Positions 20,130 to 63,574 of a DNA stretch of 64,000 bases are shown one piece after another. The stretch spans positions 8,866,001 through 8,930,000 of the forward strand of contig OZ004610.1 in assembly GCA_963924565.1 (NCBI GenBank), in the 5' to 3' direction. The translations under genes and the position numbers were made by a program. Within the stretch, counting starts at the first letter, position 1. Each line of letters opens with the position of its first letter. Source of the DNA: Ascidiella aspersa. Lineage: Eukaryota. The notes below the pieces were generated by a model that ran no database searches, was not told the origin of the DNA, and was given only the letters and a program-made list of their open reading frames with translations.

Positions 20130-21311
20130 GTTTATTCAACACAAATCAAATTATTTTTGGCAATTAATATGCATTGCTGAAATGATCCTAGTAAAATATG
20201 AAAATAGTCATTACTAATAGGTAACATAAAAAAACTCTTATAACAAAAAAAAACTCGACGCTGGTCTACAATCCTAATACATTTTTGTCCAGGTGTTAAT
20301 ATTGCTAGCATTATTTTGGGTATCGTTTGAATTTGGTTTTGAATGAGTAAAGTATTACGTTATATTTAATCTCTTGCATATTTATTTCTTTCTTACTATT
20401 TAAATTTGACAACAACTCGTTTCGTAACTGTAAAACAAAGTTAAAGCAGCTCACATACTGGTCATAATAATCAACTGTTTCGGGCTACAGCGCAATAGCT
20501 TGTGCAGTGCACGACTGGCGTAAGCGGCCTACCTGTTGAGCTGAGCAGCTTTACCATTTAAACAAACTGTATAGCTGGGAGTTTAGAGTAATAAGTTTTC
20601 CGAAAGAGTAAATTTAATTCTGAAAAAAATGTTTTGCTATCAGTTTTCATCTACTGCGAAGGGTGCGAAGTGTCGAAGACTTTTTTAGAGGAGCAACTGC
20701 ATAAAAAACGTCAACAATCAACATACTGCAAACTTTGTGGGTGTTTTCAACCGTTAATTGATTAAAATAAGAATTACATGTGGTTATTACGTTGTGTGAT
20801 CCCTAAACTATAATGCTGGTTTCGTTCAATATTAAATATTTAAAGTATAATTTTAATTTATTTTAAAGCTTAAACAACTGGAAAGGTATTTAATAATATT
20901 AGTCGGTCATGAATGAGCTAGGTTGCAATATCTTTGCCCTTATGACGTACGAAATACCACAAATTTACCTTGTATATTTTAACAGAGGGACTTGACCAGG
21001 GCTGCCACTCCTTGGGATTTTAGCCTAGACCTGGGGATCTGGGGATATCTGTTCCATATCTTGGGAATTTTAATTCATTAGCAGGTTGAAATTACAAATA
21101 TTTTTTTGCTTGTATTTAAGGACTCATTTCCTAATAGGAATAAGGAAGAAGCTATTTTCCTGGCTCGTGGGTGTACGCGTCGCATACATTCCTCATGTGA
21201 CGTAACAATGCTAATTCTTGCTTGTTAGACGAAACTGTTCATTTACTCTAGCTTGTGTGACGGCGTTAATGCAACAGACCCAATCGACAATAATAATAGG
21301 AGCTATTAAGG

Positions 21312-44100: not shown

Positions 44101-46111
44101 TTAATACCGGGAACGCGGGAAGCTAGGAAATATTTTTCGTCGTGAGAAATTGAAAACTTATTTACTCCACAATATTTTCAAACAGCAGCAGAAAAATAAA
44201 CCAATCTCAAAAAGCAATGGAGCTTTCCAAAAGACAGTGTTTCAAATAAGGGGGTCTTCAAACTTCTGGCCAAAAGTGGACAACGAAAATTTACATTGTT
44301 TTTGGTGCCTGCACCTATTCGAAATCTATGCTGTGAGAATGGGGCTCGCTGTGCTTCACAGTTCAACACACACTTAACGCTGCTATATGCCGTTTGTGGT
44401 TTTCAGGACGACGGCAAGTCGGTTTACGCGTCGACTGCAAAATTACCGCCCATCGCACTCCACGTGCATCAAGCCTCGGTGAAGCGAGTCGACGATGGGA
44501 CATTCCATGTTTCGAGTAAGTAACCACACAGTACTTAGAGGCCTTCTTTCCTGATCTAAGCCCTCTTTCACTCGTCGCAGTCGAGCATTTTGGCTTAAAT
44601 ACCAATTCGAACTTTGGGTACATGTAGGCAATTTTAAATTTTACGATTTCTTTAAAAAGTTGAATATGTGCTGTGCAATCCAGAAATCTCTAAATAACAC
44701 ATTTGTCCATCTAATCTACATTAAGTTACTTTTTCGACCGATATTCGTTGCCACTATGTTGTAATTTGACACTAAAATGTAAATCAAACGACGTGTTTTG
44801 ACTTATTTTCTCTACTGTAGGATATTTTTTTATAAAAGTTAAAACATGTATTTGTGTTGGTTTTATTTAACGTTCTTTTTTATCTATGTTGTGGGCGCTC
44901 ACTCAAGTAACAAAACGCTTTTAGCGAAATTGAAAAAACATAAAACACATTCTCCACAACTTAACATGTGTTACGAAACACTCCCGGATTACGATATTAA
45001 AGTATAATTATCAATTTTGTAAATTCCTTGTTGTTGTTTTATTTGACAGTGGATTCTACGGGCAAGTCAGTCACTGAAATCGCCGAAGTGCTCAAGACCA
45101 CGCCGACAGTGACCTGTAGCGAAGCGGCGAGCACTCCTGAATACGTGGACACGATTATTTCGCCCATAGCTACTGTTACGCTGAGCCAAAGCCCCGACCA
45201 AGCTAAACACGCGAAAGTTTCCGAACGTCTCGCGAACGGCGAACTGCCCGCGAAACCGTCCGAGTCTCCGGCGATTGTTAGTCTCGGTAGTAGTGTTGCG
45301 CAACAGCGAATCCACGGCGACCTCGAGCGGCTGAAGATGGAGAAGGACATCGAGGTGATGTGTCTCAACCAGCAGCTGGTCGATTTGGGAAAGGAACGCG
45401 ATTCGCTGGTGGCCGCGCTACAAATGATGCAGGTGAGTGACTTGGTGCGAACTAGCATGTACCTGTCGATATGTTAGACGTTACCATTCTTATCGCCTTT
45501 TACTCGCGCTTGTGCTTTTACGTGTAGTTTAGTTATTTTCATTTATACTTTGACCTGATTAAGCACGGTTGTGCGAAAGCTTGTCGAGAATTTAATACAA
45601 TTTGTCTTTACATAGTTCAACCTGATTCCCTAATTTAAAATTAGACAAAATTTCGCGATTTACAAAGATTGGTACAAACGCTGCAACATACGCCATGTCG
45701 ATCTGTACATTAGCCGTTAGAAGAGTGTTAGTTCTTGCTCTATATCCACTGTAAGATTTAATCTTATACTTGTTGTTGTGTCATTTTTGTGTGTATAAAA
45801 TGCAGTTACCACATACTCTGCCAACCAGAGGGAACAAGGGTACTTAAAATATCTAAGCAATTTTTGATTAAGCTTAAAGCTATTGTCGTGCCTTTAATTG
45901 AACCTGGTAAACCCAGAATACACATGCGGTGTTTCCAGTTGTTTCGCGACCCAATTACACAATAGAACTATCAGATGATACCCTGATTTCTGGGGTGTTC
46001 TTACACAGGTTTAAATCAGCAAGAGTTTCTGTTTAGGACGATCTGATGGTGTCGGAACAAGAACGCAAGTCGCTTCGGGATCGGCTTAAGCTGGTGTCGG
46101 CGCAAAGGTGA
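26200..46111 (+). CDS. BLTP3: Bridge-like lipid transfer protein family 3 (UHRF1BP1/UHRF1BP1L/SHIP164-like), ~31 coding exons
   Basis: Chorein-N-type start MAGLIKKQILKHLSK|FAKNLSSDSIQLSTLRGEGELSNLELD...LPTWLQIN..CNKVHVKIPWTKLK; later DDLLWVLTDAQ, ETSFHIDIDRIDLHICDD, DHYPYHKAG, FTDYFFPDG, DHYQFLFLL, RIDSGPSA, FLEDEVV; coiled-coil C-terminus ending DDLMVSEQERKSLRDRLKLVSAQR* (last exon 46037-46111). Exon phases are consistent wherever I checked them. Confidence 0.92.
32957..33124. mobile_element. hAT MITE, aagtc-repeat family
   Basis: TIR cagtgttgtaa / ttacaacattg; TSD agaagctc / agaagccc (7/8); internal caagt/aagtc arrays. Confidence 0.85.
36392..36541. repeat. 39-bp intronic minisatellite, ~3.8 copies
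   Basis: Unit gccacttgattcctttttgattccggttaattcgattct, ending ~25 nt before the acceptor at 36565. Confidence 0.92.
37289..37378. mobile_element. 3' fragment of aagtc-family hAT MITE
   Basis: gtcaagtcatttt...cagtgacttaagtgcactta...tcattacaacactg matches the end of 60904-61294. Confidence 0.7.
37728..38102. mobile_element. hAT-like MITE with duplicated left end
   Basis: caggaattcttaaactg and caggggttcttaaactg left ends, gggtacgtagactagt repeated, right end aagttgaagaaccaccctg. Confidence 0.6.
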
Positions 46112-47697
46112 TGGCGGAAAAGGCAAAATATATTTAATCTTACTGTTCAAGTATGAAAATGAAATCTTGCGTCATGGCAGCAAACGTCGCCGCCTCCGTC
46201 CTGTGACATATGAGCGTTTTTTAATAGATTTTCTTGCATCGTGTCACATTGTTTTCTTTTTGTCCATCGGCGGCCGAGTTATCGCATTTACTTCACTTAA
46301 AGCGTCGTTGTTCGCTCAACTTCGATGGGCGCCCTCAGTGCAATAAGCCTGCGTGGGTTTTCAGTAGCTCAGTTCTCGCACTCGTGTACATCCACGCTCT
46401 AAAGTTCATTTCACACAAAACGAATGCGGTCGACAAAAATCGGCTGAATTCTCTACGTTTGTTGCACATCCTCCAGTGTTAAACGCCGACTTTGCGTCCA
46501 AGAGCTTTCCGTTGGTGCCCGCTGGGAAATACATTCGGTTGCGTGCTTTGTGCTCACTGGCTTAACACATCGTAAACACTATTACCCAAGTCGCTGTATG
46601 TTTACCACCGTAAAGCAGTAACGTAAGTTGCTCATTTCAATTAAATACCTAAAAGATTTCGTAATTTTCTTTAAAAATGGCAAAACTGAAAAGATCTTTA
46701 AAAAAATTTGTGATCTCATCTGCTAAAGCAATCTTATACAAGTCACCTGGAGTAATTCTATTTTTGAAAAACGTAATATAGGATCAATATATGTCCACCC
46801 TTAAAAAAGTAATGATGTAGGACACCCCTACTGACAATCCGATCCGTTTGCTTGCACAACAGTTTTCAGTTCTTTGCGTAGAAAAAGAAAACAGAAAATT
46901 TTAAGTGCGTAAACGATTTCTCGTTTGTACAAAATTTGCCTGTCGATTTCAAGCGGCCGGATGATACACTTTGCATTTATTTATTTATGTATGTATGCAA
47001 CGAATAATTTCATATTTTGTGGCGAAATGTTGTGCAATTTTATTTCGTGGTACTATAAAGTGCTGCCCGTAACAACCGACATTTTTAACCGAGTTATGAA
47101 ATCAATCTCTTTAGGAACTGATCGTAGAGGTGATTCGGAAATGGTCCTGGATGAAATTAGTAAAACACCGCTTTGGATATTCGTTTATTAATAAGCGTGC
47201 ATTTCCTTATGCAACAAATTTCACTGTGTCGTAGTTTTGGTCGAAAGGGTCATTTGTTCGTCAGCATGTCATTTTGATTACCGTGCTTTTTTGAAAAGCT
47301 TTGGCTTTTTTGTGATTGATTGCAAAATAAATAGATCAATACTTAACATTTGTGTGATAACATCGACCTAAAACATTTTATCCAAATACTGTCTTGTAAA
47401 TATATTGGTTTATTTTTAAAGCGTATACATTTGTTCCGTCTTAAAACGATATATCATGCGAGTAATGCACACGACTGCAGACAGGTGAAAATAAATCGCG
47501 CTTACATGGCCACCTTTCAACAAAAAAAGGCTTTTGAAGCCAGGGCCAAATCCTTGAGATAAATTAGCAGGAATTACCCGGACGTAATCGTCTGTGAATT
47601 AGAGTTTAGAAGTCGGCCATGAAAATACAGTAATAGGCCATTTGACGCGGCTGCACAACATTGAAATAAACCAAGAAAGGCGAGAAGGCATTAGACT

Positions 47698-47946
47698 AGG
47701 GGTCATCAACATTTTTGTAACGGAGAGCTACTTCGTGTGTAGTGATTTATTCCAAAGGCAAACAGTTTGGATATGTATTATAAGAATCTTGTCGTTTCCG
47801 TATACATATAAATTTACAGTGTGATTAAAAGAAATAGTTTATTAGACGCAGCTCACTGATGGCGAGTAAGCTATTTTTTCGGCCTGTGGGCGCCTTATAT
47901 CGGGCGACCTGGTGCCAGTGGCAAGTGTGTTTGTTGGCGACCCCCG
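47698..47946. mobile_element. hAT-like MITE between BLTP3 and EXOC4 3' ends
   Basis: taggggtcatcaaca ... tgttggcgacccccg inverted ends. Confidence 0.55.
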
Positions 47947-48359
47947 CGTTATATTAGTATAGAAAGAAAATCACATTAGCACTTGTTAACGGAATCTGAT
48001 GGATTTTTTAATGCCCAACCAAAATCTACAATACCAACTGAACTTATCAGCTTAAAAAGGGCCTGTCTTATTCCAATAAGCGAATTTAATACTTATGTGA
48101 CATTTAATTAGGGTGTAGGTTATCCGTTGGCAGGCGCTTTAGTCCAGGTGGTTCAAATGGGTAATTAGAAAAAAATGAATTCCGCCAGTTACCGAATTTC
48201 CATTGAAATGACCAGACTTGGTAAACGACAGTTACTCGGAAATCGCGCTCACAACATGATAAATCAAAAAAATAAAAATAAAAATCCTATTGCATTTCGA
48301 CACAAGCGTCTGAATAAAACGAAAAGAACAAAAAAAGTGCTTAAACGCAAGCTAAGGGA

Positions 48360-51300
48360 CTAAGAGTCGGGGCCGTTCTTCTGCTGCTGCTCCATCTGCT
48401 CGGCGTACTCGCGTTTGTAGGTTTGCTCGCGCACGATCGCACGCAGTCGCTGAGCGCGTGACAACTGGACGCTGTCGCTTCCCGAGCCCGGCTTGCTTCG
48501 GTGCAGGAGATGTAAGGCCTCCACGTAATCCTCTTCGTTGTAGCGCACGCCCTGCTCCACCACTTGCACCTGGAACCGTAACGATATGAATTGTGTGCCT
48601 GTTGTGATGCGCGTTTACAATGAGGCTACAACTTGTTTCTATAGATCCAAACGAGGACACTTATTTAATTTGTCCAGCAGATGAGATCTAGTTTTTATGT
48701 CTTGTAATATGTTGATAAACAACTGTTAGGTATGCTGTGATTAGTAAAGTCAGGCATTTATTTAGACCAGGGGGAACAACTTTTTTATACCTTGTGGACC
48801 TCAGTGGGCAAGAAATTTCCAAAAATAACATTATGTATTCACAATACAATACAAATAAACTTCAGAAATATACTGATTTAAGTCCAACAATGTGAAAGTG
48901 AAATGGAGTCTAAATACATTGAGTGTTAAAACGATTTATTTGTGATTGAACTATTTTGTTTGAAAATTGTTGACTTCTTGAATATACACTAACATTTCAA
49001 TTTGGCCTTCATGGACCCCAGTTCAAGTACCCCTGATCTCAGAGGTGTAGCCAGGGTATTTTACGCTTGGGGGCAAACTGTTGAATTGGTGCCCCTTCTC
49101 CATGTTTAATCACATTTTCTATTACAATGACATAATATACCCATTCAATTTTTAATAGAAGATTGCATTTAAAGAAGCAGCAGCCTCATTTTGGCACTCC
49201 TGTACTTTGGCGCCCGGTAAATATGTACCTCACCGCCCTCCCCTAGCTACGCCTTTGTCTGAGAAACAGAAGGCTTTTGTAATTGCGATGTGGAACAGCT
49301 GAATGGTAAATTATTCTGTATGGAAAAAATACCTGCAGATCATCAGGAAGCAAGTTCAGCATCTCGTAAAACTGACGAGCCATGTCCAGGTGTGACTCGC
49401 GAGACATCGTGAAGTTGGTGAGGCACTGTTGTAGGGTGAAGATGTTCCTACACATTTTCTTTACTCCAGATGGTGAGATTCGCTTGATATACTTTGCTCC
49501 TCCGATAATAATAGCCGCCATTTGATGACCAAGACCCTCAAAGATGTAGCGGTACTTTGTGTTTTGTAGAGAAGGACTAAGATTTTCTTCTGCTGCCTGC
49601 AAATCCTTAATAAGCTTTGTGATTTGGAAATCATGCTCCATGCTTTCCAGCCCACGGATGTCATAGTTGGTGTTCTTCAGCATTGGCGTCAAGTGGTAAA
49701 AGCACCTGAGTCGCATTTCGATGTGCAAACAGAGAAGACATATTTCTGCCATGCGTACATAATCTTGATTCAAGTTTCTCAGCATTTGCAAAGTGTCGGG
49801 CGGGGCAAGGTTCTGTATTTTATCGATAAACTCTTCCAGGCGACTTGCATACCATTCTAGGCTCTCATGAAGGCAGGCAATGTCCTTTAGACATGTTGGA
49901 TCCTCCATGAGGGAATTTTTCCCCAAGGCTTCTGATCCCTGCCTGTCAACAAAGAAGTGGGCTTCTTCCATAAAAGCTTCTCTAAGAGATGTTGATGACA
50001 CCGCTGTAGAAGAAGTAATTGCCTTCCAGTTGTCAAAGTTGCGTAATACTTCACTTACTTCTTGTTCTCTTACCCACGATGCACTGGCCACCCTTTGGTC
50101 TTCCGATTCTGGCTGCACCACTCCTCTATAAGACTGTATGGACATCTCTTTGTACTCTTGAATCAAGGAACAGGCCATGGTAAGAAAATGATCGTGGTAG
50201 CTATCGAGGCTGGTTGTCAGGTCATAAAGAAACCACATGCAAGAATTAGCAACTACTGCACTTTGTAGGAGACTTTTGCCCTTGGCTATATCCTTTTGCA
50301 AACTGGGATCTGCCAAAACCTTTAAAGGGTCTGTAACTTTTAGTGCAGCATCAAAATCCTTCTTCAACTCATACTGAATCTGTCTGATAAACACATCCTG
50401 CACATAGTCAGTAATGTACTCATGCAATGCACATTTCTTGCCTTTAGGGTATCCCAAGGAGGTTTCTATTTCATTAAAGAACTTCTTAAGTGGACCGAAT
50501 ATGATGGTAATGTTTCTTGGATTCGGCTTGCATACTTTCTGTGTTGACAAAACATGATCCATCAAAGGGGAGGTTACACCACCCAACGAGTTAGTGCGTC
50601 GCTGGGCGCGCTGTTCTCTCAGGTATGTGTTCATAGAAATAGCATGTGATGAGCTGTCAAAGCGAAACAACTTGGCAACTTGAGGTCGACTTGCCTTCTT
50701 ACGGGCAAAGTGCTGAGACAAACTGCCTCCTTCGGCAAAGCTCAGCCCTGACAGTTGCTGAGAAGCATCGGTAACATTGTCGGCATCAAGGTAATCGTGA
50801 AGGAGCATTTGTAACACTGACTGTATTTTAGCCCATACATCTTCAATTTCGTAAATCTGGACATCAACATTTGTTTTGTTTTCAATCTTTTTCAGACACT
50901 CCAGGATGTGAGCGTGGGCGGAGACAACACAGTGAAACTTTTTAAATAGCAGCTTAAGAAGCTCTAACAACCTCTTTGGGCTATCCTCACTCCTCGACTC
51001 ATCCTGAAAAGCCATGTCTGTGACTTCCACAGTTGTATGAGTTACCAGTGAGTTTATATGTCGGTCCATTCTTGTCTTATTTGCTTCTACCATATCGGGA
51101 AGTTTCTTTAGATAGGACAAGGACTCTACCAGGATGGTCATCAACCTAAAAGGGTCTTCTTCAGGGTTGCCATCCAAATCTTCAAGTTGCAAAACAGATT
51201 TGCTAAATTTTCCAATCTTGCCCTCGTCCTCAAATGATTCCTTTCTTTCAAGCTTTGATGCCTGTGGTTTCTCAGAAGACTGACTCTTTGCTGACTTTGA

Positions 51301-51957
51301 TATAGAATTTATGTATATTTGTTTGTGTAGTTCTCCTATCAGGGCCTCATGCATTATTAGCTTTTTGCTGATCAGCTCATTCCTGATGTCATGCAGTGCC
51401 TCAACTTTGATTAACTCCCCTTCCAAAGCAGTAAGGGTTTGTGTAAGAAGCTCTGTCGCGTGGAGGTAAAACTTTTTACCCAAGTAACCTTCAATGCTCT
51501 GCGGAGCCTGCTTTACCCTTTCAATTTGATCCAGGAGGTAGAGAACCTTTTTATGTTCCACACCCTCTATCCACAGCTTTCTGAGCTCATCCTGGCGACA
51601 GTATAGAAGTGACTTACACTGTTGCAAATCCTCCTTGACATTTTTAATGCGCTTTCTCGACTCTGAAATGCGATCGCCAATCTTCCCAAACTGCTTGATA
51701 GACACAGCCAACTCCTCGTAATTATCAGCGACTAATTCATCAAGCTTCTCATCATTTTCAGTAAACGCCTCTTCCAGTCTCTCTTTTTCCTGGTCACGTT
51801 GTCGATCATCCTCGCTGGCTGAAAGGGTGCGAATGATTGACATCAACAAACCAGAAGGATCCCGAATAAATCCAGATCGGCTTACCCCTGCCATGGGTTT
51901 TGCACCTGTATGTCTGACATTCCGAATAGCAGGACTACTGTCAAATGGATTAGACAT
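48360..51957 (-). CDS. EXOC4: Exocyst complex component 4 (Sec8), exons 51957-49333 and 48569-48360, ~944 aa
   Basis: DPSGLLMSIIRTLSASED..QRDQEKERLEEAF, LFRFDSSSHAISMNTYLREQ, LHIEMRLRCFYHL, YRYIFEGLGH, GVKKMCRNIFTLQQ; donor CAG|gtattt phase 0 joins VQVVEQGVRYNEEDYVEALHLLHRS. Confidence 0.95.
48768..49257. mobile_element. Two adjacent MITEs filling most of the EXOC4 intron
   Basis: cagggggaacaac...gttcaagtacccctg (~48768-49035), then cagaggtgtagccaggg...ccctagctacgcctttg (~49040-49257). Confidence 0.6.
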
Positions 51958-52181
51958 TTTAAAGAAGTATACAGCACTAAGACCTAAGAGTGTAAAAAAA
52001 GGACTAATATATTAAATTTATTCCTTTTTAATTCAATCAAAAATTTTTAGTCAATATTTTCTTTAAACACAGCTCAAAATACTTTTATATACCTATTTAT
52101 TGAGCTGTAATTACATTCTATACAATTATATACATAGCATAGTTCTATATATAACTCTTTTTTTAACGAGTGACCATTAGA

Positions 52182-52466
52182 CAGCGGTTCCCAAGCTTGG
52201 CGCCAAAACTTTGCCATGGGTTCAATGGAAGCAAGTGAAAGTTGTTGCGTTTTTAGTGTTATCCTCTCACGCATGAAGTGTTTTGTTTCCATGTATTGCA
52301 AATTGCGATGTTTTTAACCTTTTGTAACTCAGGCATTAAAATCTTTCAATGTTTTGCATTTTGAACAAACGTGATTTTTAATCTGCAATATTTGAATTCA
52401 TTACGGCGTCACAAGTTTTGATATGTTTTCAAAGGGCACATTCAACAATAAGTTTGGTAACCACTG
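52182..52466. mobile_element. hAT-like MITE between glutaredoxin and EXOC4
   Basis: cagcggttcccaagctt / aagtttggtaaccactg; TSD ccattaga / ctattgga (6/8). Confidence 0.65.
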
Positions 52467-53219
52467 CTATTGGAGAAATATTCTTTTAGGAGGTAGTAAT
52501 AAGGAATTATATAAAAATATAAAATTTAACAAACTCAAGCAACTTTGCATTCCTGTTTATAAAATATATGTATCAGGAATAAGCAAAATTGTTATTGAAA
52601 AGAGTCAAAACAAGACAAAAAATCAGGTTGTCAATACTTTTGATTACTATCAGCTAAAGAAGTCTTAAACATAGTTGCAGCTTTGCCCACACCTATGATA
52701 TGTAAATTTCTAACATTTTGAAAGACTGTAACAAATACAATGCACAACATACCTAAAAGTTTCAAAAAGAATACAAACACTAAATTAATTTACACTATAG
52801 GTAGTATGTATTTTACAGTTACAGTGAAAAAATAGTTTGTATAGTAGAGACACTAGTTATTACTGTGCATACTTTCCCATAGCAGTATGGATAAAACTAC
52901 ATAATGCGGATGATCAAAAAGTAAATCAGTTTGGTCTCTTCGAACTTATAAACATAAACAATAACTTTAGTGCTTGTATAATGTATGTAACGAAAGTGCA
53001 GTCATAATATCAGTTGATAACAAAGAAACAAAATCTGTTATGAAACATTGCATCTACATATACCCAACTTTATGCAGTTGCTAACAAACTTTTTGCATAT
53101 TATCAAAAATAAACTAGGTATACACAAACAAAATAGGTTACATGGTTACCAACAATATGAAATGTATTTAAGTAAAGTAAAATATGAATAAAATGGACTT
53201 TTAGAAATAAAAAGAATAG

Positions 53220-53576
53220 TTAGTTATCTTGTCCTTCATTTAGTACAAGATCCCTCAGTTTGTTTTGCTTGTTCAGTGCACTTGTTTCGTTTCCCCCACC
53301 AATGCATTTTCCATAAATGAAAACTCTTGGAACAGTTCTCGCCCCAGTTAGTTCCAGTAGCACATCCTGAATGACATCACGATCAGATCTGCCCGTCAAA
53401 GAAACATCGTGATACCGAACTTTAATGCCTTTGAATGCTGATTTTGCTTTGATGCAGTAAGGACAGGTCAGTTTGGAAAACATCACAACAGGATGTGCCG
53501 ATATTGTTTCGTTAATAAATTGTAGGGCTTCATCTGGATTACTGTACCTTTTACTATTGGAAGACCCCATTTTCAT
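53220..53576 (-). CDS. Dithiol glutaredoxin (class I, GLRX/GLRX2-like), single coding exon
   Basis: VVMFSKLTCPYC, TGARTVPRVFI, CIGGG; splice acceptor (aacag) just upstream of the ATG. Confidence 0.93.
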   Translation of the reverse strand: MKMGSSNSKRYSNPDEALQFINETISAHPVVMFSKLTCPYCIKAKSAFKGIKVRYHDVSLTGRSDRDVIQDVLLELTGARTVPRVFIYGKCIGGGNETSALNKQNKLRDLVLNEGQDN

Positions 53577-53623
53577 TCTGTTTAAAATGCAGAACTATAC
53601 CAATACCAAATGTTAGAAATGTT

Positions 53624-53828
53624 GCTGGTCTAGAATCCTACCATTTTTTAAGTAACAAAACGAGTTGTCAAAAATGAAATCGCAAAGAACAAGTTAATAT
53701 GGGGTATTAAATATTATAATAATAATACTTGATCCCCCTAACTAAAACGCTAACTCGCACCCTAACCCAAACAATGTTGGCAATATATTCCCCCCAATAA
53801 AAATGTGGTAGAATTGTAGACCAGCGCC
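53624..53828. mobile_element. Family A MITE with telomere-like core
   Basis: gctggtctagaatcctacca ... tggtagaattgtagaccagc; core aacgctaactcgcaccctaaccc. Confidence 0.8.
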
Positions 53829-54891
53829 GTTAAAAATATCTTTCAAAACACTTTACACTTATCAAACACTATAATCTGTATGGTGTACCCGAATCCGATT
53901 ACTGGCAGAAATAAACATCAAAATGATTTTTTTGATTGGTGTGAAAGTAAGCAAACGGATTGTCCAGCTCGGTTGAATTCTGTAACTTATTAATGTGTCT
54001 GCAACATTTCGAGAAAAGTGTAACTGTGCACTTCCTTTGCCTTCAATTTCCATCAACACCGATTGGCAAATGGCTAGCTAAACATTGCGTCACGTGGATA
54101 AGCAGTCAGCTGTATGAATGGTAGGAAGGAGAATATGCGGGCTTGCAAATGAAGATTTTTGCAACATTAGATGTTTTTCGTGCTACATTGAATACACCTA
54201 GGTGATGGACATGATATGTCTAACATTTTTACCATTCTTTATTCGAAATAGGATTAATTTAATAACAAAAATACCGAAAACCATTCTGGGATTTCTCACA
54301 TTCTTTTTAAATATTTTGTCTGTAAGGCGTTGCTCCAAGACATTTCGAAATTTGTTTTGGGCGGTGGAGTTTTTGCAGCCTCGTATTTCAAATCATCATG
54401 ATTGCACGAAAACTTATATGCCAGCATCACGCATGTTAGTTTTCCGCCACGTTTTCTGCGGATGTTTCGGAATATCCGAATTGGCGATAATTGATTGGCA
54501 AGCTGTTGTCTGTAGGGTCACCATAAGTTGTCGATTCAGGCAAAAGCTGGTTGTCGTATAAGATAAATTCTTTCATCTGAAATAAACTATTAGGCAAAAA
54601 ACGAAGCTTGCAACGAAAACGAAAAAATTACCACGTAGTGTTACTCAGTAGCGGCATGTAATTGGAGAGAGAAACCAAGAGAATTGCGCACTAATCTATT
54701 TTAACCGTATGGTCTCAAGTTACATTATCATCATCTGGCCGAGTGGCTAAGGCGTGTTTTTCCACCTTGGCCTTTTGGTTAAGATGTTGCACGCCTGCTA
54801 AAGACACAAATTTACTACTTAACATTAGGCATACTATGCTTATGTTATAGGTTTAATTGTAACAAATTATTGTATATATATTCAAGCAATT

Positions 54892-56820
54892 ATGTCAAGC
54901 ACTAAACCTCAGGTTATTCCAGCACCAGTGAAGTTCCTTTTTGGAGGATCAGCAGGGTAAGATATATATAAATGTTTTATTGCTTTTTTGTCTGTTACCT
55001 ATCTAAATAAGCCGATTTGTATTATTTAGAATGGGTGCCACACTTTTTGTCCAGCCACTAGATTTGGTGAAAAACCGCCTTCAATTAAGTGGAGAAGGTG
55101 GCCAAAAAAAGATGTACAAAAACAGTTTTGATGCAATTTCCAAGATTCTACGCAGTGAAGGCATTGTTGGAATGTACAATGGGTAATTAGTAGAGCTGCA
55201 ATGTCTTGTATCATTGAGAGTACTAAACAAATAAAACATAAAAATAAGCGTGTGTAATGCAATTCTTGTTTAACCTTGCAGTCTATCGGCTGGCCTTCTC
55301 CGCCAAGCTACGTACACCACAACAAGACTTGGCGTGTTCACTTTTTTGATTGATGCATTTGCAGAACCAGATGGAACACCACCTGGCTTTTTCAAAAAAG
55401 CAGCCTTAGGTCAGTCATAATAAAACTATTTTGTTTAGGCAGTGTTTCTTAACACATAGTTCGCAACCCAAAGATTGGTCGTCATTTAATTAAATTTGAA
55501 CTTAATGTTTGCCTATTTCTTATCGTTTGTTCACTTACAAAAAGTTCAGTGATGAGAATTCTAATGCCAAAGCTTTGCTGTTAAACTTGTGCCTGGTATT
55601 TGGGTTGCCGGCCGCCACGCAAAAGGTTGAGAAACAACGGTTTAGTACAACACGAAAATGATTATAATTCATAATTTTTATATTATACAGGAATGACTGC
55701 AGGTGCATGTGGTGCTTTTGTTGGTACCCCGGCAGAGATTTCACTCATTCGCATGACAGCAGATGGCCGTTTACCAGTTGAACAAAGAAGGGGCTACACC
55801 AGTGTTTTTAATGCTTTGTCGCGAATGATTAGTGAAGAGGGCCTCTTCACTTTATGGCGAGTAAGTAACTTCGTCAAATATAAATTTTATCCCCTTTTAT
55901 AGGAAATATTGTAAAATTTAAGGCTAAGAAAAAAGTAGGGTGATATATATGCTAGAATTTTGTTTGTAAATAGCAATAAGAAGGAACTTTTCTTGTACAT
56001 TTTAAAACAAGTATAAATATTTAACCTGTCATCAGTAAACTGTTGTTTTTCAATGTTTTTGTTTTTAGACATTATTTTCAATGCAATGTTTCTTCCTTTA
56101 AGGGCTGTATCCCAACAATTGGCAGGGCTGTTGTTGTCAATGCTGCTCAGTTAGCCTCTTATTCGCAAGCGAAACAAATGTTGCTTACTACTGGTAAGTT
56201 TCTAATTAACATCACTGTCTTGTGCTAAAAGCACTGCAAATTTATATTAAAAAACAATATTTTGTGTTGAAACAGATTACTTCAACGATAACATTTTTTG
56301 CCATTTTGTTGCAAGTATGATTAGTGGTCTGATAACCACGGCTGCATCAATGCCTGTCGATATTGCAAAAACCAGGTAAATAGAGTTATTTGCATCATAA
56401 TTTTTTCTGTTCCATCCGGCATTGTTCACATTATTTTTAACTTCTCAGAATCCAAAATATGAAGATAGTTGATGGAAAGCCAGAATACAAGGGTGCAATT
56501 GTAAGTTATAATTTTGTTTACTACAAAATATTGGGTTTATGGCAGTTACAAATACAAAAATATATAATATGATATGTATAATATGTAAAGTGTTAACTAA
56601 GTAAGTGAGGAATAACAGATGTAATTTTTGTTTACTGGGGCCTAACCTACTCCTTATTGATTTATAGGATGTTCTTACAAAAGTTGTGCGCAATGAAGGT
56701 CCGTTCAGTTTGTGGAAGGGCTTTACACCATACTACTTTCGACTGGGCCCACACACTGTCCTCACCTTTATCTTCCTCGAACAGTTGAATAAGTTTTATA
56801 AGAACAAATACATGAGCTAG
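54892..56820 (+). CDS. SLC25A11: Mitochondrial 2-oxoglutarate/malate carrier, 8 coding exons
   Basis: VKFLFGGSAGMGATLFVQPLDLVKNRLQLSG, GLSAGLLRQATYTTTRLG, GTPAEISLIRMTADGRLP, RAVVVNAAQLASYSQAKQ, ASMPVDIAKTRIQNM, WKGFTPYYFRLGPHTVLTFIFLEQ; three PX[DE]XX[KR] repeats. Confidence 0.96.
55440..55639. mobile_element. hAT-like MITE in SLC25A11 intron
   Basis: cagtgtttcttaac ... ggttgagaaacaacg, with gtttag on both flanks. Confidence 0.6.
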
Positions 56821-58646
56821 GAACCTTGTTTCTTATGTTGAAAGCATTAAACTGTATAGATTTATATGGTGGCTTACTTTCTAGCCGAAGAAGGAGTATA
56901 TTTTTTTTTTGGTTTCACTTTAAAAATTTTCTTTACTTCAACATAATGTAAATCGTTGCGCCTTAATATAAGAAAAACATAAACTTGTAGAAGATTTTAT
57001 TTTATTTTTGCCATTATCAATTTACATTGTACTGTAGTGAGTATTACTGTATTAGCTTGTAATAAGCAAAATGACCAGAAACTCAATGGCAGTGATGTGT
57101 AATGTTGATGTGCATGTCTTTCTCCGCAGTCTTATCTACTCTGTGTGTTGAGAGTGGTCAAGTGATTTTAGATCACTGTATTGTATGTGTGCTTTTTTAG
57201 GTCATGTATACCCTTTAATTAAAGAATCGTTGTTTATCAAATGGCCGTTAAAGGTACTACGCTGAATTTTATACACCTTTCTACACTAGCCAAACAATTG
57301 TATATTTTGTAACTTTCTGTCAGTTGGTTTGGTTTTGTGTGGTAAATCTTCTCTCGACATTTTGGCGGTCGCTGTTTGCGTTATTTCAAGAAAAAGTCAC
57401 AGCGTTGTCTGTGAGGCTATGAAATTGCCAGTCAACTTTTGTGATAGCAGAAACTCAAAGGTAGAAATAGGCTTTTTCACAAACGCAAATGTTAGTTAAT
57501 TTAATCTTTGTTTCCGAAACGAAACTATAACCATGCAAATATATTATCAAAATAAGGTAATTCCAAAATTTGATCTTTATTCCTGGTAGTTTTGGTCAAA
57601 TGCTAACTCGTTTTGATATTAAAGACCCTGCAAACCCTTTTAATATCTCAACATTTTGGTTAGCATTGTTGCCACATCTACCAAAATTTAGAAACATAAA
57701 TTGTTTGTTGGGGCGCTGTTCCAATTCGCGCTGTTAACGATTTTTTCGCTAAAACTTAATCTGAAAGGGCATTTAAAAAAGTTTATTTCTAATTCGTGTT
57801 AACGTGTACAACACGAAAAAAAAACATGCAATCATCATTTGAAGAGCACAACAGAGGTTAAACTTATTGCTTAGCAATCTCACACGCCAGTTGCGCAAGC
57901 AAATAGCAAAACCAGTCACGTCGACCGTTAATCAAACATCACTCCGCAGCCTTCCGCTAACTTATTAAAACAATATTCGGCGGTTTACAGTTGCTATGGG
58001 ATTGATGTGGACCGATTAATATGCTGCATATCGTATCAGTGTAGAATAAAATCGACCTAAAATGTTTATACAAATTCTAAATATTTGGTACATTTTTAGA
58101 AATAATTTGCATAGTGAATTGGCGGGGTATAAAGGTTTCGCACCCACTGCAAATGCGTTAGCAGTAAATAGGGCTTTTAATTAGACCCAGGCCAATTAGA
58201 CAAAGCCCATTTGATAATATTATAGTACAACTTGTTATTGAAATATTAAATGGTACCTGTACACTGTACAGAATACTTGCGAATTAATCGATCAGGCATC
58301 CCTCACTAGTCCGGGTTTACAAGCAAGGCTTGATTTGTTTAAATCATGGGTATATCGATTTTATGTTAACACAAAAATGAGCTAATTTCGTCTGTAGACG
58401 AAATTTTGTTTCGTCCGGTAACTGAATTGAAAGTTACTTGGGCATTCACTAATTTGGCAAACCTATGGTAACTAGACAGTCTCCGACTGTCATTTTATAA
58501 ACATTTTGGTTTCTTGGTAGAAGAAATAAAACAATAAGCTAGGTCAGGGGTGCTTTTGCACGAGTTTGTTAGAGAACACCATGTCTTTTTAGGAGTAATT
58601 GTTTTATGAAGTCACGTTGTGACCCCGTTACTGGTCAGCCAACATG

Positions 58647-61600
58647 TCAAGGAACCTGCGTGACCTGGTCAGCCAACATGTCAAGGGTCCTGCGTTTTGG
58701 GACGGGTGGGACATTTGGGCTACGCGTCACCGGCATGACTTTGGGTGTTTTTCCCACCCCGACGTAATGGGAATCTTGCTTGAGGCTTTTCGGGAGTTTG
58801 ACAAAGGTCTCGGCCTCCGAGTCGATTTGCAAAAGTTTCGGATTAGTTTCACTGTCGTCCAAATTAGGTTCTTTCCGAGGAGGCGTTCCGGTTGGGCTCC
58901 CCTTTAAGCTACGAAACATAAAGGTGAAAAAAAGACATTTGTATATTTATTCGTAAAAGATATCGTTTAAAACAGGTAATAAATATTTAAATTAATCAAA
59001 ATATGCCTACATCTACCTACCTTACTAGTTTAGTAAAGTGTTAAAGTTATATTATTAAAGTAAATATTAATTAAGCTAACTTTAACTAAAATAATTTGAA
59101 ATGAATTTGTTTAAAGGAAGAGCCTTACGAAAATACACACTACATTAAACTTCACACAACTTCCTAAATCCGCTCTTTTGAAACCGATTTTTAAGTTTTT
59201 CTATACGGTACCGACATTACTTGGTGAAAACAACAAGTTATAAATGAAAACAAATTCACCGCTTACATCGCTTTTACTGTGTTCTGCCACTTCTTAGTGT
59301 GCTGTCCGATAATTGCATATTTATGATCCTCGACAGTCTCGTAGTCGATTTCTTCGTTCTGCCAGGGATAGGGCATTTTTTGGCGATGGCGGTAAACCGG
59401 GTGCCTTGTAAATATTACAGCAAAAATTTAGTTTTCTTAGCTAAGTTGTTACCCAGCCTATCATCCGCAATGTTTCACCTGGCGCTGCCCATGAGTCAGT
59501 ATCTCCAGGGATTTATTTTTGTTTGAGATGTAAATCGATTTCATTTCTATCTTATTTGCTCTCAAATATGCATTAAAACAGAAGACTGCAGCTGTTTTAT
59601 ATTGCACAAAAATAAGTGGACCGCTGTATGTCGCTAAATACATTACACCCATTATTTGATTGTTTGCGATAAAAAAGCATATTGGGCTTTGCAAACTGAA
59701 AACGAATATGTAAAATATGATTTCATCTGTATAAGGGTTTTCCAAACTGGAGGTCCTGACCCTTTGTATAAAGATACCAGTTAGGCTACATCTATTTCAC
59801 TGAAGTGTTAAATCTATGTAAATTCTACTTTTTTTTGGCTTTCGATGTACAAAGTCAAAACTAATGCAAAACGCTGTCGATATGCATGCAAGCGCAGACA
59901 AAGTGATATGTTCTGCTTAACACTCGCAAACTTTGTGGTTAATGAAACTGAAAAGGTTTTATAAGGTAGCCTACGTTTGAAGCAAACCGTACTTTTGAAA
60001 AGTTAACAGTTGAGGCCTAAACAGAAATATAACCGGTGTGATTAACAGAACCTCCTACGGTCCTTACGTTAGAGTTACAGTTATCTTCTTGGCCGAAAAA
60101 TTTGGTATTCCGTTTTGCGAGTAGTAGTCGAGCAGGTGCTGAAGTTCAGCGAAACTAACGCCATCTTCCATGTAAAACTGGCCTTTTTTCGAAACGAAGA
60201 TTAAAGCATGATCAAGCGTGTCCGCAGCGATTCTGTTGCAAAAAAATTTTGTTGTGTTTGAATGGCAGTGATCTTTGGAAAAAACAAAATCGTGAAGCTA
60301 AATTATAGATTTACAATAAATCTGTAAGCAAGATAAGTCGGTCGACATTAATTTGGTTTTACTTTGCTTAAACTTCATTTTTTGTTTTATTAAAACACTA
60401 ATAGAGCACCTGGCTTTTTATGAAATAGTAATTTTCTTAGCAATCAACACTTCATACCACTGGAAAATAATTTACTTTTAAACTATTTTATATTTTTATT
60501 CTATAAGTAGAAGTATAGGCTACTGGTTTACCAGAAAACGCCTTAAAAATCGCTTTGGTAAGCTAACCCAACATTTTATCCTTTTCGAGAAAAAATTGGG
60601 TGTCCACACTTACTTACACACAAGACACTGCTATCTTGCCGTAGCTGCTACTCCATCTCAGCAGGTAGGTGCCAGGTTGAAAACTGTATCTGCGTAGTAT
60701 ATCTTCTGCCTACCATGAAACGAAAAAAAAAAATAGTAGAAGTAAGTGAGCCGCGAATTTTGTTTCTAATTTAAAAAAGTAAACTATGAAGCTATTTTTT
60801 ATATACAACCAAGAATACAAGACTTAAAAAGATTGTTAGTTTTAGGGATGTCCTATAACGTCGAATCGGAGCCGATGCCAAGTGGTAGTCGATCGTTCGA
60901 TAGCAGTGTTGTAAACAAGTCATTTTGAAATGACTTAAGTCCAAGTCAAGTCTTTTTGAATAAATAACAAGTCAAGTCCCGGTCCAAGTCATCAGTTGCG
61001 CAAGTCAAGTCCCAGTCAAGTCATAATTAGAGCAAGTCAACTTCAAGTAACGTCCTTGTCGTAAAAATAAAACGTTGAACTATTTAATTTTTTTTTAATA
61101 TGTTTTATGTGCAAACATTTGGATAAATAGCTCAATTTTATTAAAAAAGGCATACAGAAAGCACTAATTTGGCCAAAAAGACTTAAGTCAAGTCAAGTCA
61201 TTTCGCCCAAAGATTTAAGTCAAGTCAAGTCATTTGAAAACAGTGACTTAAGTGCACTTAAGTCAAGTCATTGACTTAAGTCATTACAACACTTTTCGAT
61301 AGTACGGTGGTATCGGTACCGATCCGATACAGGAGTAATATCGGAATTTAAGCCCTAATTTTCGATCCAACGCCGCGACTTATAATGATAAATTTATGAT
61401 AAAAATAGTTGGTTAACAAGTATACAGGCAACTGAACTTTTCAACGCTAAACCAAATTTTGGCCCAAACGGTAAAAAATACCTTAAACGTTTTAATTTCA
61501 TCTATTTTGCTTAGTAATTACGTCATTTGGTATCTTCGGGTCGCGTTACTTCTATTAAAAATGAAAAGTCAAGTATCGGACGTTCCCAGTTATAGTGTTA

Positions 61601-63279
61601 TACTAGACGAAATACCCGGCGTTGCCCAGGTTACAAAGAATAGGGTAATACTATAATTTACGGAATTATGAATGGTCGGAATGGTCGGAACGCTCACTAA
61701 TTTAAGTGTTACCCCGTTAAAACAATTATTAAACCAACGCACAATATTTGAGTTAGGGTGGGGGTTAGCGTTTGGGTGAAGGTGGGTCAAGTGTTATTAT
61801 ATTTAATAATAATACTGTGAGCGTTCCGACCATTCCGACCAAAAGAATATTTACCGGTTATTCGTACGATCTTCGTAAATGACATAAATAAAACAAACAT
61901 ATTTTTTTAAATGTCATAACAAATTTGCATATGCCTAAACATTTGAAATGAGTGTCACTACATAGAAATTTTAAATCATGTGATGTGAAGTCGGTTAACT
62001 ATAGCGCACAACACTTGGCTAAGCATGCAATACATCTTTTAAGTAACGAAAACCCGTGACGTTTGTCAATTGAGAATAACTCCCAAACGTAAAACTTTAG
62101 GTTGCAGCAGCAATTGTTTAGACTTGCTTGATAGCGCCATGTTTAAGCAAATACGTAATCCCGGTGCTAAACTGCGTCAAACGTAAGAAAAATCATCATT
62201 GAAAAAACAAATGCTTCCGGTAACTACTGCAATAAACGCAATATTTCGCGAACTCTGATAAGTATTGCGTGGGTAAACACATTGTAAGAAGTCATTAGGC
62301 TTTGGCCTCAATCACTATCGCTAACAAACGGCTTAAAAATAAAAATTCAATTCTTTCGTAAATTTGCGAACTCTCTTGCCACACACTTACATCTCACAAA
62401 CTTTCTCTTTTATTATGTAGATGCTTATCAGCAGAGCCTATACTCACGTCTCAGGTATTGTTTTTTAATTTGATACGGCTAAAAGCTGTTTTTGATACGG
62501 TTGAATAAGATAAAACAATGATGACGCAGTTCAGTGAATCGCTTCACCTAACAAACTTTCGTATCCATTAAGGGGAATGAAATATACCTATTTAACTCCG
62601 ACACCAAAAGTGTTTTTAATTGGTGTTTTTACTGGCAAGCTTCATAGGAGCCGTCTAAATGGCCTTTAACAGAAAGGACATGATTTGAAATTTCTATTTA
62701 GTGACACTCAGTTCAAACGTTTAGGCATAAGCAAATTTGTTATGACATTTAAAAAATATGTTTCCATTATTTATGTCTTTTACTAAGATTTTACGAATAT
62801 CCGGTAAATATTCTGTTTCACCTGGGCAACGCCGGGTATTTCGTCTAGTTACACATAAACCAGATTACGATCATAAACAGTTTGGCAAAATGTAAACATT
62901 TCTAGATAAATTATTTCACAATTTGGCAAGAATGTTCGGATTTACACCAAAAGCATGCACAAGTAATTAAAGTTGCGGTTTGGGGTTATTTTCGTCAAAC
63001 GTAACCTCCATAATTTTCTTTATCAAATTAATTATTCCAGCTGAAAAGGTAAATATTTTCTTTTATAGTTTAGCGTTTCCCCTCTACTTCTCAATTTGCC
63101 TGTTTTAAACTTGGCTATGTTATTAGGTGCTTAACAACGCCTGTTTAGTATCAGTCCTATTGTAGTTGTATAAAACCTCATAAGACTACCTGGTTCCTCG
63201 TAATTGAAACAAAGAAGCAAGGATTGGTTTCCACTTCTCGATTTTTTATCAAACTAGCACTTGCTTGTTCATTGGCCAT
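58647..63279 (-). CDS. SH2-domain adaptor protein (single SH2 plus Tyr/Pro-motif tail), 5 exons, 248 aa
   Basis: Exons 63279-63190, 60709-60618, 60232-60068, 59404-59267, 58908-58647, all GT-AG and phase-matched (747 nt). MANEQASASLIKNREVETNPCFFVSITRNQ-AEDILRRYSFQPGTYLLRWSSSYGKIAVSCVIAADTLDHALIFVSKKGQFYMEDGVSFAELQHLLDYYSQNG...LTHPV fits the SH2 pattern; in-frame TAA 9 nt upstream of the ATG. Confidence 0.85.
60843..61356. mobile_element. Older MITE (tagggatgtcc...gcccta, ccgat-rich) hosting a younger hAT MITE
   Basis: Ends tagggatgtcc / aagcccta; tatcgg/ccgat motifs also seen at ~2615-2657. Confidence 0.55.
60904..61294. mobile_element. hAT MITE, aagtc-repeat family, longest copy
   Basis: TIR cagtgttgtaa / ttacaacactt; perfect 8-bp TSD ttcgatag (60896-60903, 61295-61302). 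Confidence 0.9.
61603..62421 (-). mobile_element. Non-autonomous Helitron
   Basis: Minus strand reads A|TCTACATAATAAAAGAGAAAG ... CCTGGGCAACGCCGGG (hairpin) TATTTCGTCTAG|T: 5' TC, 3' hairpin plus CTAG, A/T target, no TSD. Confidence 0.75.
61643..61841. mobile_element. MITE with telomere-like core (family B) inserted in the Helitron
   Basis: 8-bp TSD aaagaata (61635-61642, 61842-61849); perfect 24-bp IR ggtcggaatggtcggaacgctcac / gtgagcgttccgaccattccgacc; absent from the opposite Helitron arm. Confidence 0.8.
62679..62848 (+). mobile_element. Second Helitron 3' end (same family, opposite orientation)
   Basis: cctgggcaacgccgggtatttcgtctag|t plus ~140 bp that is the inverted copy of 61845-61981. 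Confidence 0.7.
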
Positions 63280-63430
63280 CGATGTTTACTTACTATACAG
63301 TTAACCGGCCATTGTTACACTTTTTATTCTTTCGATTAACTATTTTCAAACAATAAAAGCCGAAACCTAAACTCCTACACGGTAGGCTACTTATATTATT
63401 CTTTGTATATGGCCGTATTTGTCCTAATTT

Positions 63431-63574
63431 TAAATAGAGAAATCAGGTGGCACTGTATAAAGACAAATTGTATTTGATTCTCGACAAGCTTTCGCACAAC
63501 CGTGCTTCATCAGGTCAAAGTAGCATACTTTGTTCAATTTGTCTTTATACAGTGCCACCTGATTTCTCTATTTA
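63431..63574. repeat. Perfect 40-bp inverted repeat with 64-bp spacer (young MITE or hairpin)
   Basis: taaatagagaaatcaggtggcactgtataaagacaaattg (63431-63470) / caatttgtctttatacagtgccacctgatttctctattta (63535-63574). Confidence 0.9.

Follow-up and report, generated by a model that had tools for sequence, protein, structure and literature searches.

A gene on the minus strand of a 64,000-nucleotide stretch of Ascidiella aspersa DNA (GenBank assembly GCA_963924565.1, contig OZ004610.1, positions 8,866,001 to 8,930,000; this whole stretch is called the window below, and coordinates count from its first letter) encodes a 248-residue protein with an N-terminal SH2 domain, a long tail carrying tyrosine motifs and an SH3-ligand consensus, and no enzyme domain. 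We put at about 0.55 the probability that this protein is a fast-evolving, enzyme-less SH2 docking adaptor whose output is a mixed or tunable relay and not purely inhibitory. The initial annotation of the window, made from the letters alone, had described a kinase-less SH2 adaptor and had proposed that it couples phosphorylated receptors to inhibitory phosphatases. The gene, the domain and the motifs that it listed all hold up in what follows; the inhibitory coupling fares less well.

Gene structure and transcription

Five coding exons join into 747 nt, that is, 248 codons and a TGA stop. The four introns (2480, 385, 663 and 358 nt) are all GT-AG. The features of the gene are:

63280..63390, minus strand: untranslated 5' portion of coding exon 1 (X3 contig over 63189-63390, 2 differences, no gap)
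63190..63279, minus strand: coding exon 1, residues 1-30, with the ATG, the SH2 start, Cys21 for the usual Trp, and Arg28 (alphaA2)
60618..60709, minus strand: coding exon 2, residues 31-61, with alphaA, betaB including Arg48 (betaB5) and Ser50, and betaC (Pfam SH2, 15.5 bits; RNA joint 60232/60618)
60068..60232, minus strand: coding exon 3, residues 61-116, with betaD (His69 betaD4, Ala70 betaD5, Leu71 betaD6), betaE/F and alphaB (Pfam SH2, 14.4 bits; RNA joints)
59267..59404, minus strand: coding exon 4, residues 116-162, with the SH2 end, then the start of the tail with Y120, Y128, Y137 and Y145
58647..58908, minus strand: coding exon 5, residues 162-248 and TGA, a Pro/Lys/Thr-rich tail matching no Pfam family (RNA joint 58908/59267)
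57698..58646, minus strand: 3' untranslated region (UTR), which extends to 57700 or so at the least (by stranded X5 reads and an X3 contig)
58631..58695, no strand assigned: two 31-nt copies, 34 nt apart, across the stop codon

All four junctions are seen in RNA. Introns 2, 3 and 4 are spliced out together in one 2085-nt contig of sequencing run X3 (depth 190), a run that we took to be RNA-derived because its contigs are spliced, and they are crossed by 4, 1 and 1 raw RNA reads, respectively, in the roughly 6 in 100 of run X5 that was read. The joint between exons 1 and 2 appears as loose ends carrying exon-1 letters in four X5 reads and one X3 contig. First mates of X5 lie on the plus strand over the exons, which is the expectation for minus-strand RNA in most stranded libraries.

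Could further exons add a kinase or another domain? An in-frame TAA (63288-63286) stands three codons before the ATG and is covered by a gapless X3 contig; a further 110 bases at the 5' end of the X3 contig could not be placed, and an in-frame coding extension is impossible there. Probes made from a JAK, two Syk-like open reading frames (ORFs) and a Src-like protein found no kinase or SH3 similarity in positions 44001-62000 of the window plus 20 kb further, their sole match being the gene's own SH2 exon (E 0.65), and no Pfam domain was found in exons 1, 4 or 5. The stop before the ATG and the empty surroundings thus speak against additional coding exons. As in an enzyme-less adaptor, the transcript holds no catalytic or further folded domain, and an identity as a Syk/Shark- or Src-type kinase was rejected because neither transcript nor vicinity holds a kinase domain.

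Without the second copy of the 34-nt-period duplication at the stop codon, the frame would end six residues earlier. Among the coding variants listed from other runs, at least eight in number, four are synonymous and four change the protein; none alters a tail tyrosine, a pocket residue or the PxxPxR pattern. From run X4 (organism B) came nothing but near-identical pieces of low depth, covering the gene's unique parts, and these were not used as an ortholog.

The SH2 domain

The SH2 domain is complete and spans residues 19-119. Exons 2 and 3 match the Pfam SH2 model (PF00017) weakly and in the right order (15.5 bits, model positions 11-39, and 14.4 bits, positions 45-77), each match alone lying below the 21-bit cut-off. 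Once spliced, the domain scores 42.5 bits (positions 3-97 of 101) on a profile built from 11 reference SH2 sequences, against a maximum of 7.0 in 1000 shuffles, and both introns inside the SH2 were found again by a spliced aligner whose only guide was a generic SH2 profile. The nearest Atlas clusters are likewise SH2.

SH2 domains contact phosphotyrosine (pTyr, or pY in motifs) through Arg betaB5, Arg alphaA2, His betaD4 and Lys betaD6 (PMC9783222). By alignment, Arg28 (alphaA2), Arg48 (betaB5), Ser50 and His69 (betaD4) are all in place, betaD6 is Leu71, and Cys21 replaces the usual Trp. The retained binding arginine (in GTYLLR) and the Cys for the first Trp (in PCFF), both noted in the initial annotation, stand in the spliced frame. 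Position betaD5 is Ala70. Domains with Ala at betaD5 belong to group IIA, with ligands of the form pY-hydrophobic-x-hydrophobic, and those of SAP, EAT-2, SHIP, HSH2D and SH3BP2 have Tyr/Phe there (PMC9783222 Table 2); betaD5 classes are also treated in PMC12470777.

The tail and its motifs

The tail (residues 117-248, 132 residues) is predicted to be disordered, with a FoldIndex of -0.09 vs +0.23 for the SH2 domain. No transmembrane segment was found in the protein, its one hydrophobic stretch (residues 56-74) lying inside the SH2 fold. IDYETV, YAII, SHYVGV and PPVPKR are all read in the spliced frame:

59332..59349, minus strand: IDYETV (Y137), consensus of the ITIM (immunoreceptor tyrosine-based inhibitory motif), with Glu at +1 and acidic residues at 3 of the 5 positions before the Tyr
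59308..59319, minus strand: YAII (Y145), a YxxI site that is not an ITIM (His at -2)
58755..58772, minus strand: SHYVGV (Y210), ITIM consensus, hydrophobic at +1 and +3
58692..58709, minus strand: PPVPKR, class II SH3-ligand consensus PxxPxR

The sole variant seen in the Y137 codon is synonymous, and a K233R variant leaves PxxPxR intact. Is this motif set more than chance? In 100,000 shuffles of the tail, two sites of the ITIM consensus [VILS]xYxx[ILV] arose with P=0.010, PxxPxR with P=0.078 and both together with P=0.001, values that apply to patterns picked after the sequence had been seen; a single ITIM has P=0.16. The ITIM rate in 16 long ORFs of the same genome, not all of them proven genes, is 8 in 265 tyrosines, giving P=0.009 for two sites. 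The consensus is common: 40,063 of 96,457 human isoforms have an ITIM or the related switch motif (ITSM), and the study reporting this applied a shuffle threshold of 0.25 and defined ITIMs in receptor tails (PMC11460946). The two sites here exceed chance (P=0.010, for a motif chosen afterwards) and do not lie in a transmembrane receptor.

Judged by the ligand classes in PMC9783222 (Table 2), pY210-V-G-V and pY145-A-I-I fit group IIA ligands (SHP-1/2, Vav, p85, PLCgamma). With its acidic +1 and hydrophobic +3 residues, pY137-E-T-V appears nearer to group IA (Src family, Nck, Syk; pY-acidic-acidic-hydrophobic) or IIB, and the SHIP group (pY-x-x-hydrophobic) would accept pY137, pY145 and pY210 alike. 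The N-terminal SH2 of SHP2 requires a hydrophobic residue at -2 (PMC7337045); this residue is Ile at Y137 and Ser at Y210. Given Glu at +1 of Y137 and Ser at -2 of Y210, neither site is an ideal SHP2 ligand.

These observations bear on the role first proposed for the gene, that of a dedicated inhibitory adaptor whose SH2 sits on a phosphorylated immune receptor and which, in blood cells or allorecognition, shuts signaling off by drawing in SHP2 or SHIP through its two ITIM-like sites. That two strict ITIM matches fall in a 132-residue tail at P-values well under the 0.25 threshold argues for it, as do the presence of an SHP2 gene and of an SH2 exon about 240 kb away whose best single-SH2 PDB matches are SHIP1 and SHIP2. 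Moreover, Botryllus uses ITIM and hemITAM (half immunoreceptor tyrosine-based activation motif) co-receptors and expresses SHP-1, SHIP and Grb2 homologs (PMC12582321). However, only Y210 has the hydrophobic +1 residue of the SHP-1/2 pattern (PMC9783222), the two sites are 73 residues apart, the protein lacks the transmembrane segment of the receptors in whose tails ITIMs are defined (PMC11460946), and there is no paralog family, which allorecognition genes tend to have. We consider a dedicated inhibitory role unlikely, and the proposed coupling to inhibitory phosphatases is not upheld: Y137 is closer to the Src/Nck/Syk group and the consensus is common.

The Botryllus fester co-receptors (FcoRs) are the ascidian proteins with ITIM-type tyrosine motifs to which the gene might be likened (PMC12582321). 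FcoRs are, however, receptors in a large polymorphic family, whereas the product described here is soluble and single-copy.

A quite different reading is that the SH2 domain acts as a competitor or decoy which occupies, blocks or shields pTyr sites, the tail being mostly neutral and its motifs there by chance. The protein would suit this in having no enzyme domain and a tail that matches no family and resembles none of the loci compared (best E 0.82); its C-terminus has been reshaped by a recent-looking duplication, and its motifs taken singly are unremarkable. Against this, the tail of some 130 residues extends over two exons and is open in every haplotype seen, Y137 lies in an acidic context like that of kinase substrates, and the combined motif set exceeds the shuffles. 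We rate a decoy function as quite improbable.

Place among the SH2 domains of the genome

When the genome was scanned with Pfam SH2, 70 matches at the level of exons came back, the present gene not among them; this census is a lower bound. The reference set comprised 59 domains: 51 reconstructed from 45 loci, six single-exon domains, Cbl and JAK; many of the reconstructed domains are partial or have wrong terminal residues. Their family names are those that we presume from sequence signatures, except for SHP2, tensin, BLNK-like, Cbl and a weak STAP-like label.

The best of the 59 were a Src-like kinase SH2 (score 91) and the C-terminal SH2 of Shark (84), which reached 99 and 100, respectively, in a separate scoring at about 30% identity. 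Since pairs within families score 181-381 and single-member families 74-156, the gene behaves as a family of its own. Exons 2, 3, 4 and 5, each compared with the whole genome and with only the best candidates scored, matched nothing but the gene itself; as far as such comparisons reach, it is a single-copy gene with no close paralog recognized, in keeping with the initial annotation. The phylogeny that had been suggested as a check, run as a quick tree on 54 of 60 rows (five under 55 residues were dropped, as was the poorly reconstructed L066), likewise gave no supported placement with any family of the genome. Of its 51 inner branches, 33 are open; the gene falls in no starred clade, and the tree joins it to STAT/Cbl, among long branches and unstarred, at a Shimodaira-Hasegawa approximate likelihood-ratio (SH-aLRT) value of 80.

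The phase-2 intron in betaC is common to 12 of 57 other domains (after a one-residue slip in alignment register was corrected by eye) and is the commonest SH2 intron here; a SHIP/SAP-like SH2 of the same genome is among those that have it. The phase-0 intron in alphaA is shared, among the 57, with tensin only, at a CAG|G site that could plausibly have gained an intron independently; Shark's alphaA intron lies one codon earlier.

Resemblances to STAP, p85 cSH2, JAK, Shc, Cbl and tensin were rejected because none stood out when compared with the genome's own members: scores were 21-31 for JAK, 57 for Cbl, 45-56 for p85 and 44-48 for tensin. STAP proteins have a PH domain followed by the SH2. Here the SH2 starts at residue 19 with an in-frame stop upstream, and the score to the weakly labeled STAP-like locus (L076) is 31-39, so STAP1/STAP2 was rejected as well. 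Only one gap, of one residue, interrupts the alignment of the genome's Cbl SH2 to the N-terminal half, and Cbl too is without the first Trp (its score ranks third of 59), but it shows no match to the canonical C-terminal half (24), its introns differ, and Grb2- and PLCgamma-like domains score equally on the N-terminal half.

Known adaptors and the question of orthology

In the SH2D2 family the SH2 is followed by a tail bearing Tyr and Pro, and HSH2D and SH2D7 have the layout of an N-terminal SH2 plus such a tail. Like our gene, SH2D2A/TSAd, HSH2D/ALX and SH2D7 have a single SH2 and no enzyme, and they are classed as adaptors (PMC9783222 Table 1). HSH2D, however, has Tyr/Phe at betaD5 and pY-x-N specificity (PMC9783222), in contrast to Ala70. 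The score to the genome's own SH2D4-like domain is 47-54 in a set without vertebrate members, and the tree does not join the two. SAP and EAT-2 (SH2D1A/B) are also small enzyme-less SH2 proteins; they belong to group IB with Tyr/Phe at betaD5 (PMC9783222), again unlike Ala70. With its tail, the present product is about twice as long as SAP or EAT-2. The SHIP/SAP-like domain of the genome (L047) has a raw score of 42, ranks 42nd of 59 and is not joined in the tree; vertebrate SAP lies outside the set. The likeness to SAP/EAT-2 and the SH2D family pointed out initially thus stands for the layout and fails at betaD5, and most other domains are at least as close to the gene as the SH2D4-like or SHIP/SAP-like ones.

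Might it nevertheless be a strongly diverged ortholog of a known family (SH2D2/HSH2D/SH2D7, SAP/EAT-2, SH3BP2, SLAP or SH2D5), or else a duplicated kinase gene, Shark or a Src-like one for instance, that has been truncated, with the mechanism of that family? The layout of HSH2D and SH2D7, the common betaC intron, the incomplete census and the top raw scores with the two kinase SH2 domains are all consistent with this. The identities behind those scores are 26 of 82 residues for Shark and 29 of 99 for the Src/Frk-like kinase, mostly in the C-terminal half. However, both belong to kinases, their introns are placed differently, and they score as unrelated SH2 families do, far below within-family values; betaD5 departs from the Tyr/Phe of SAP, EAT-2, HSH2D and SH3BP2 (PMC9783222), no starred clade includes the gene, and exon 3 matches SH2 structures only weakly. 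On balance we hold such an origin to be improbable.

The PDB matches of exon 3 number 24 at E up to 10, the SH2 structures among them being only Hck, Src and Blk, all weak (E 0.098 or worse); exon 2 gave no SH2 match in the PDB and exon 1 no match. All ortholog searches used single exons. A word-indexed search returned nine candidates for exon 3, none at E up to 10, and no candidate for exon 4. A phmmer search of exon 3 against 1.84 billion representatives gave six matches, none an ortholog: five are repeat proteins without SH2 and one is a coelacanth multi-SH3/SH2 protein scored by summed domains. The sole metagenome match (L102) proved to be a wrong-strand reading of cytochrome b/c1 DNA from a bacterium; the end of its contig resembles a sequencing adapter. 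Exon alignments on full-length SH2 scaffolds were mostly misaligned; in one of them exons 2 and 3 came to lie in the right place but were diluted. The profile search derived from such an alignment mirrored the scaffold and was not used. As a control, an exon of a Src-like kinase SH2 from this genome, its frame checked, was likewise without a match in the word-indexed search and found no PDB SH2 at E 0.001, so the blank searches carry little weight. We read their outcome as "no close relative" and not as "no relative"; the earlier statement that no ortholog was recognized stands in that sense, and the term lineage-specific is plausible. No paper on such a tunicate protein appeared in the literature searched. 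A survey of SH2 proteins in 21 species (Liu et al. 2011) may include a Ciona counterpart. In the main text of a Ciona blood-cell preprint (10.1101/2025.05.20.655184), neither SH2 nor ITIM occurs.

Proposed role

We favor the docking adaptor. Its SH2 domain would bind phosphotyrosine on an activated receptor or scaffold and, by the betaD5 rules, would prefer a group IIA ligand (pY-hydrophobic-x-hydrophobic). A Src- or Syk-type kinase could then phosphorylate the tail, Y137 with its acidic context being the likeliest target. Among the tail motifs, pY-E-T-V would be a fit for Src/Nck-type SH2 domains and pY210 for SHP2, and PPVPKR may hold a Grb2-, Nck- or Src-type SH3. Since the tail sites belong to mixed ligand classes, the output is likely a mixed or tunable relay and not purely inhibitory. 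Candidate partners are present in the genome, namely the SHP2 gene and Grb2-, Nck-, Src- and Syk-like SH2 genes, the latter named from sequence signatures.

Several points weigh against this interpretation. Loss of the betaA Trp and the following His-Gly, together with Leu for the often-basic helper at betaD6, could lower the affinity of the domain. Few X5 reads lie over the coding exons (depth 0.2-5). When nine common pTyr patterns are allowed, four of the five tail tyrosines match something in 9.6% of shuffles. The single-exon searches retrieved no ortholog that might share the motifs, and with four synonymous and four changing variants the sample is too small for selection to be seen.

Expression context and locus

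The observed/expected CpG ratio of the coding sequence is 1.0, compared with 0.44-0.61 in all six neighboring genes or regions measured. In Ciona, gene-body methylation accompanies broad expression (PMC3827831), and so the gene is probably not a housekeeping gene; its expression may be restricted or regulated, to judge from this unmethylated-type CpG content. The ratio gives no information on which tissue. Of the CpG-retaining setting, rich in transposable elements, that had been taken to fit a tissue-restricted gene, the CpG content and high-copy repeats in intron 1 are therefore borne out and ubiquitous expression is improbable, while no tissue is indicated. The repeats are:

60751..62500, no strand assigned: high-copy repeat elements in intron 1 (loose ends cluster here and the depth in DNA run X1 is 10^4 to 10^5; the limits, taken from depth bins, are approximate)

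One of these elements has ends near 60904 and 61293. Just upstream of coding exon 1, at 63431-63574, lies another small element with perfect 40-nt inverted arms and a near-identical 16-nt direct repeat on its flanks, which is high-copy in DNA reads.

Both neighbors of the gene are on the plus strand: a mitochondrial-carrier gene, which ends at 56820, and a WD40 gene, whose start lies beyond the window. The 3' UTRs of the SH2 gene and the convergent carrier gene merge in X3 contigs (56900-58650), whereas stranded X5 reads leave a gap between the two at about 57430-57700. CpG content along the window is a mosaic. The window is part of a 308.6-Mb assembly with two loci that match glycoside hydrolase family 6 (GH6), which among animals suggests a tunicate; tunicates have a cellulose synthase and, apart from it, a GH6 gene. 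Three long single open frames, all CpG-depleted, encode the exocyst subunit Sec8 (49246-52011), an ABC half-transporter (18111-20135) and a glutaredoxin (53223-53594), each on the minus strand.

Other SH2 genes of the genome

Several further SH2 genes came to light in the genome survey. Four loci have SH2 exons that we take to be STAT-like: L080 (G000:C5:29526473), L081 (C6:13889177), L069 and L075, two of them with identical exon translation on different contigs. L076 (G000:C1:16270505-16270684) is a divergent SH2 whose signature we assume to be STAP-like, with weak PDB support (STAP1 third, E 0.33, behind BTK). Intronless ORFs for tandem-SH2 kinases of the Syk type, 606 and at least 586 residues long, are found at L009/L010 (G000:C1:3416139-3416708) and L015/L019 (C1:31715643-31716230). 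A JAK-like gene (L087, G000:C5:19587570-19587821) is a single open frame of 1118 residues, with an SH2-like domain in which the Arg is kept.

Finally, there are two SH2 genes of the BLNK/SLP-76 type, L079 (G000:C2:33456581-33456715) and L063 (G000:C2:12038366-12038560). BLNK is the sole PDB match of the L079 exon (E 4e-4), and the two pair in the tree at SH-aLRT 94. LAT and SLP-76 homologs are reported to be absent from ascidian genomes (PMC12582321); the pair may be overlooked members of the BLNK/SLP-76 family.

Implications

As matters stand, the protein is of an ordinary kind, its SH2 domain unplaced and its motif tail putative; it would work like the small adaptors of the SH2D2/SAP class yet fails their betaD5 test. 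A bolder version, which we regard as very doubtful, would make it a soluble ITIM carrier from an ascidian SH2 lineage of its own that docks on phosphorylated receptors and brings along a pair of inhibitory motifs and an SH3 ligand. Were that so, SHP/SHIP inhibition could reach receptors that have no ITIMs, and a chordate outside the vertebrates would independently have evolved an inhibitory counterpart of the SAP-type adaptors; inhibitory motifs would then be found on a soluble adaptor.

Tunicates are the sister group of vertebrates. Their tyrosine-motif signaling is being worked out (PMC12582321), and standard SH2 scans miss such genes, as the Pfam scan of this genome did. An expressed SH2 adaptor outside the families recovered in its own genome is a candidate link between receptors and effectors.

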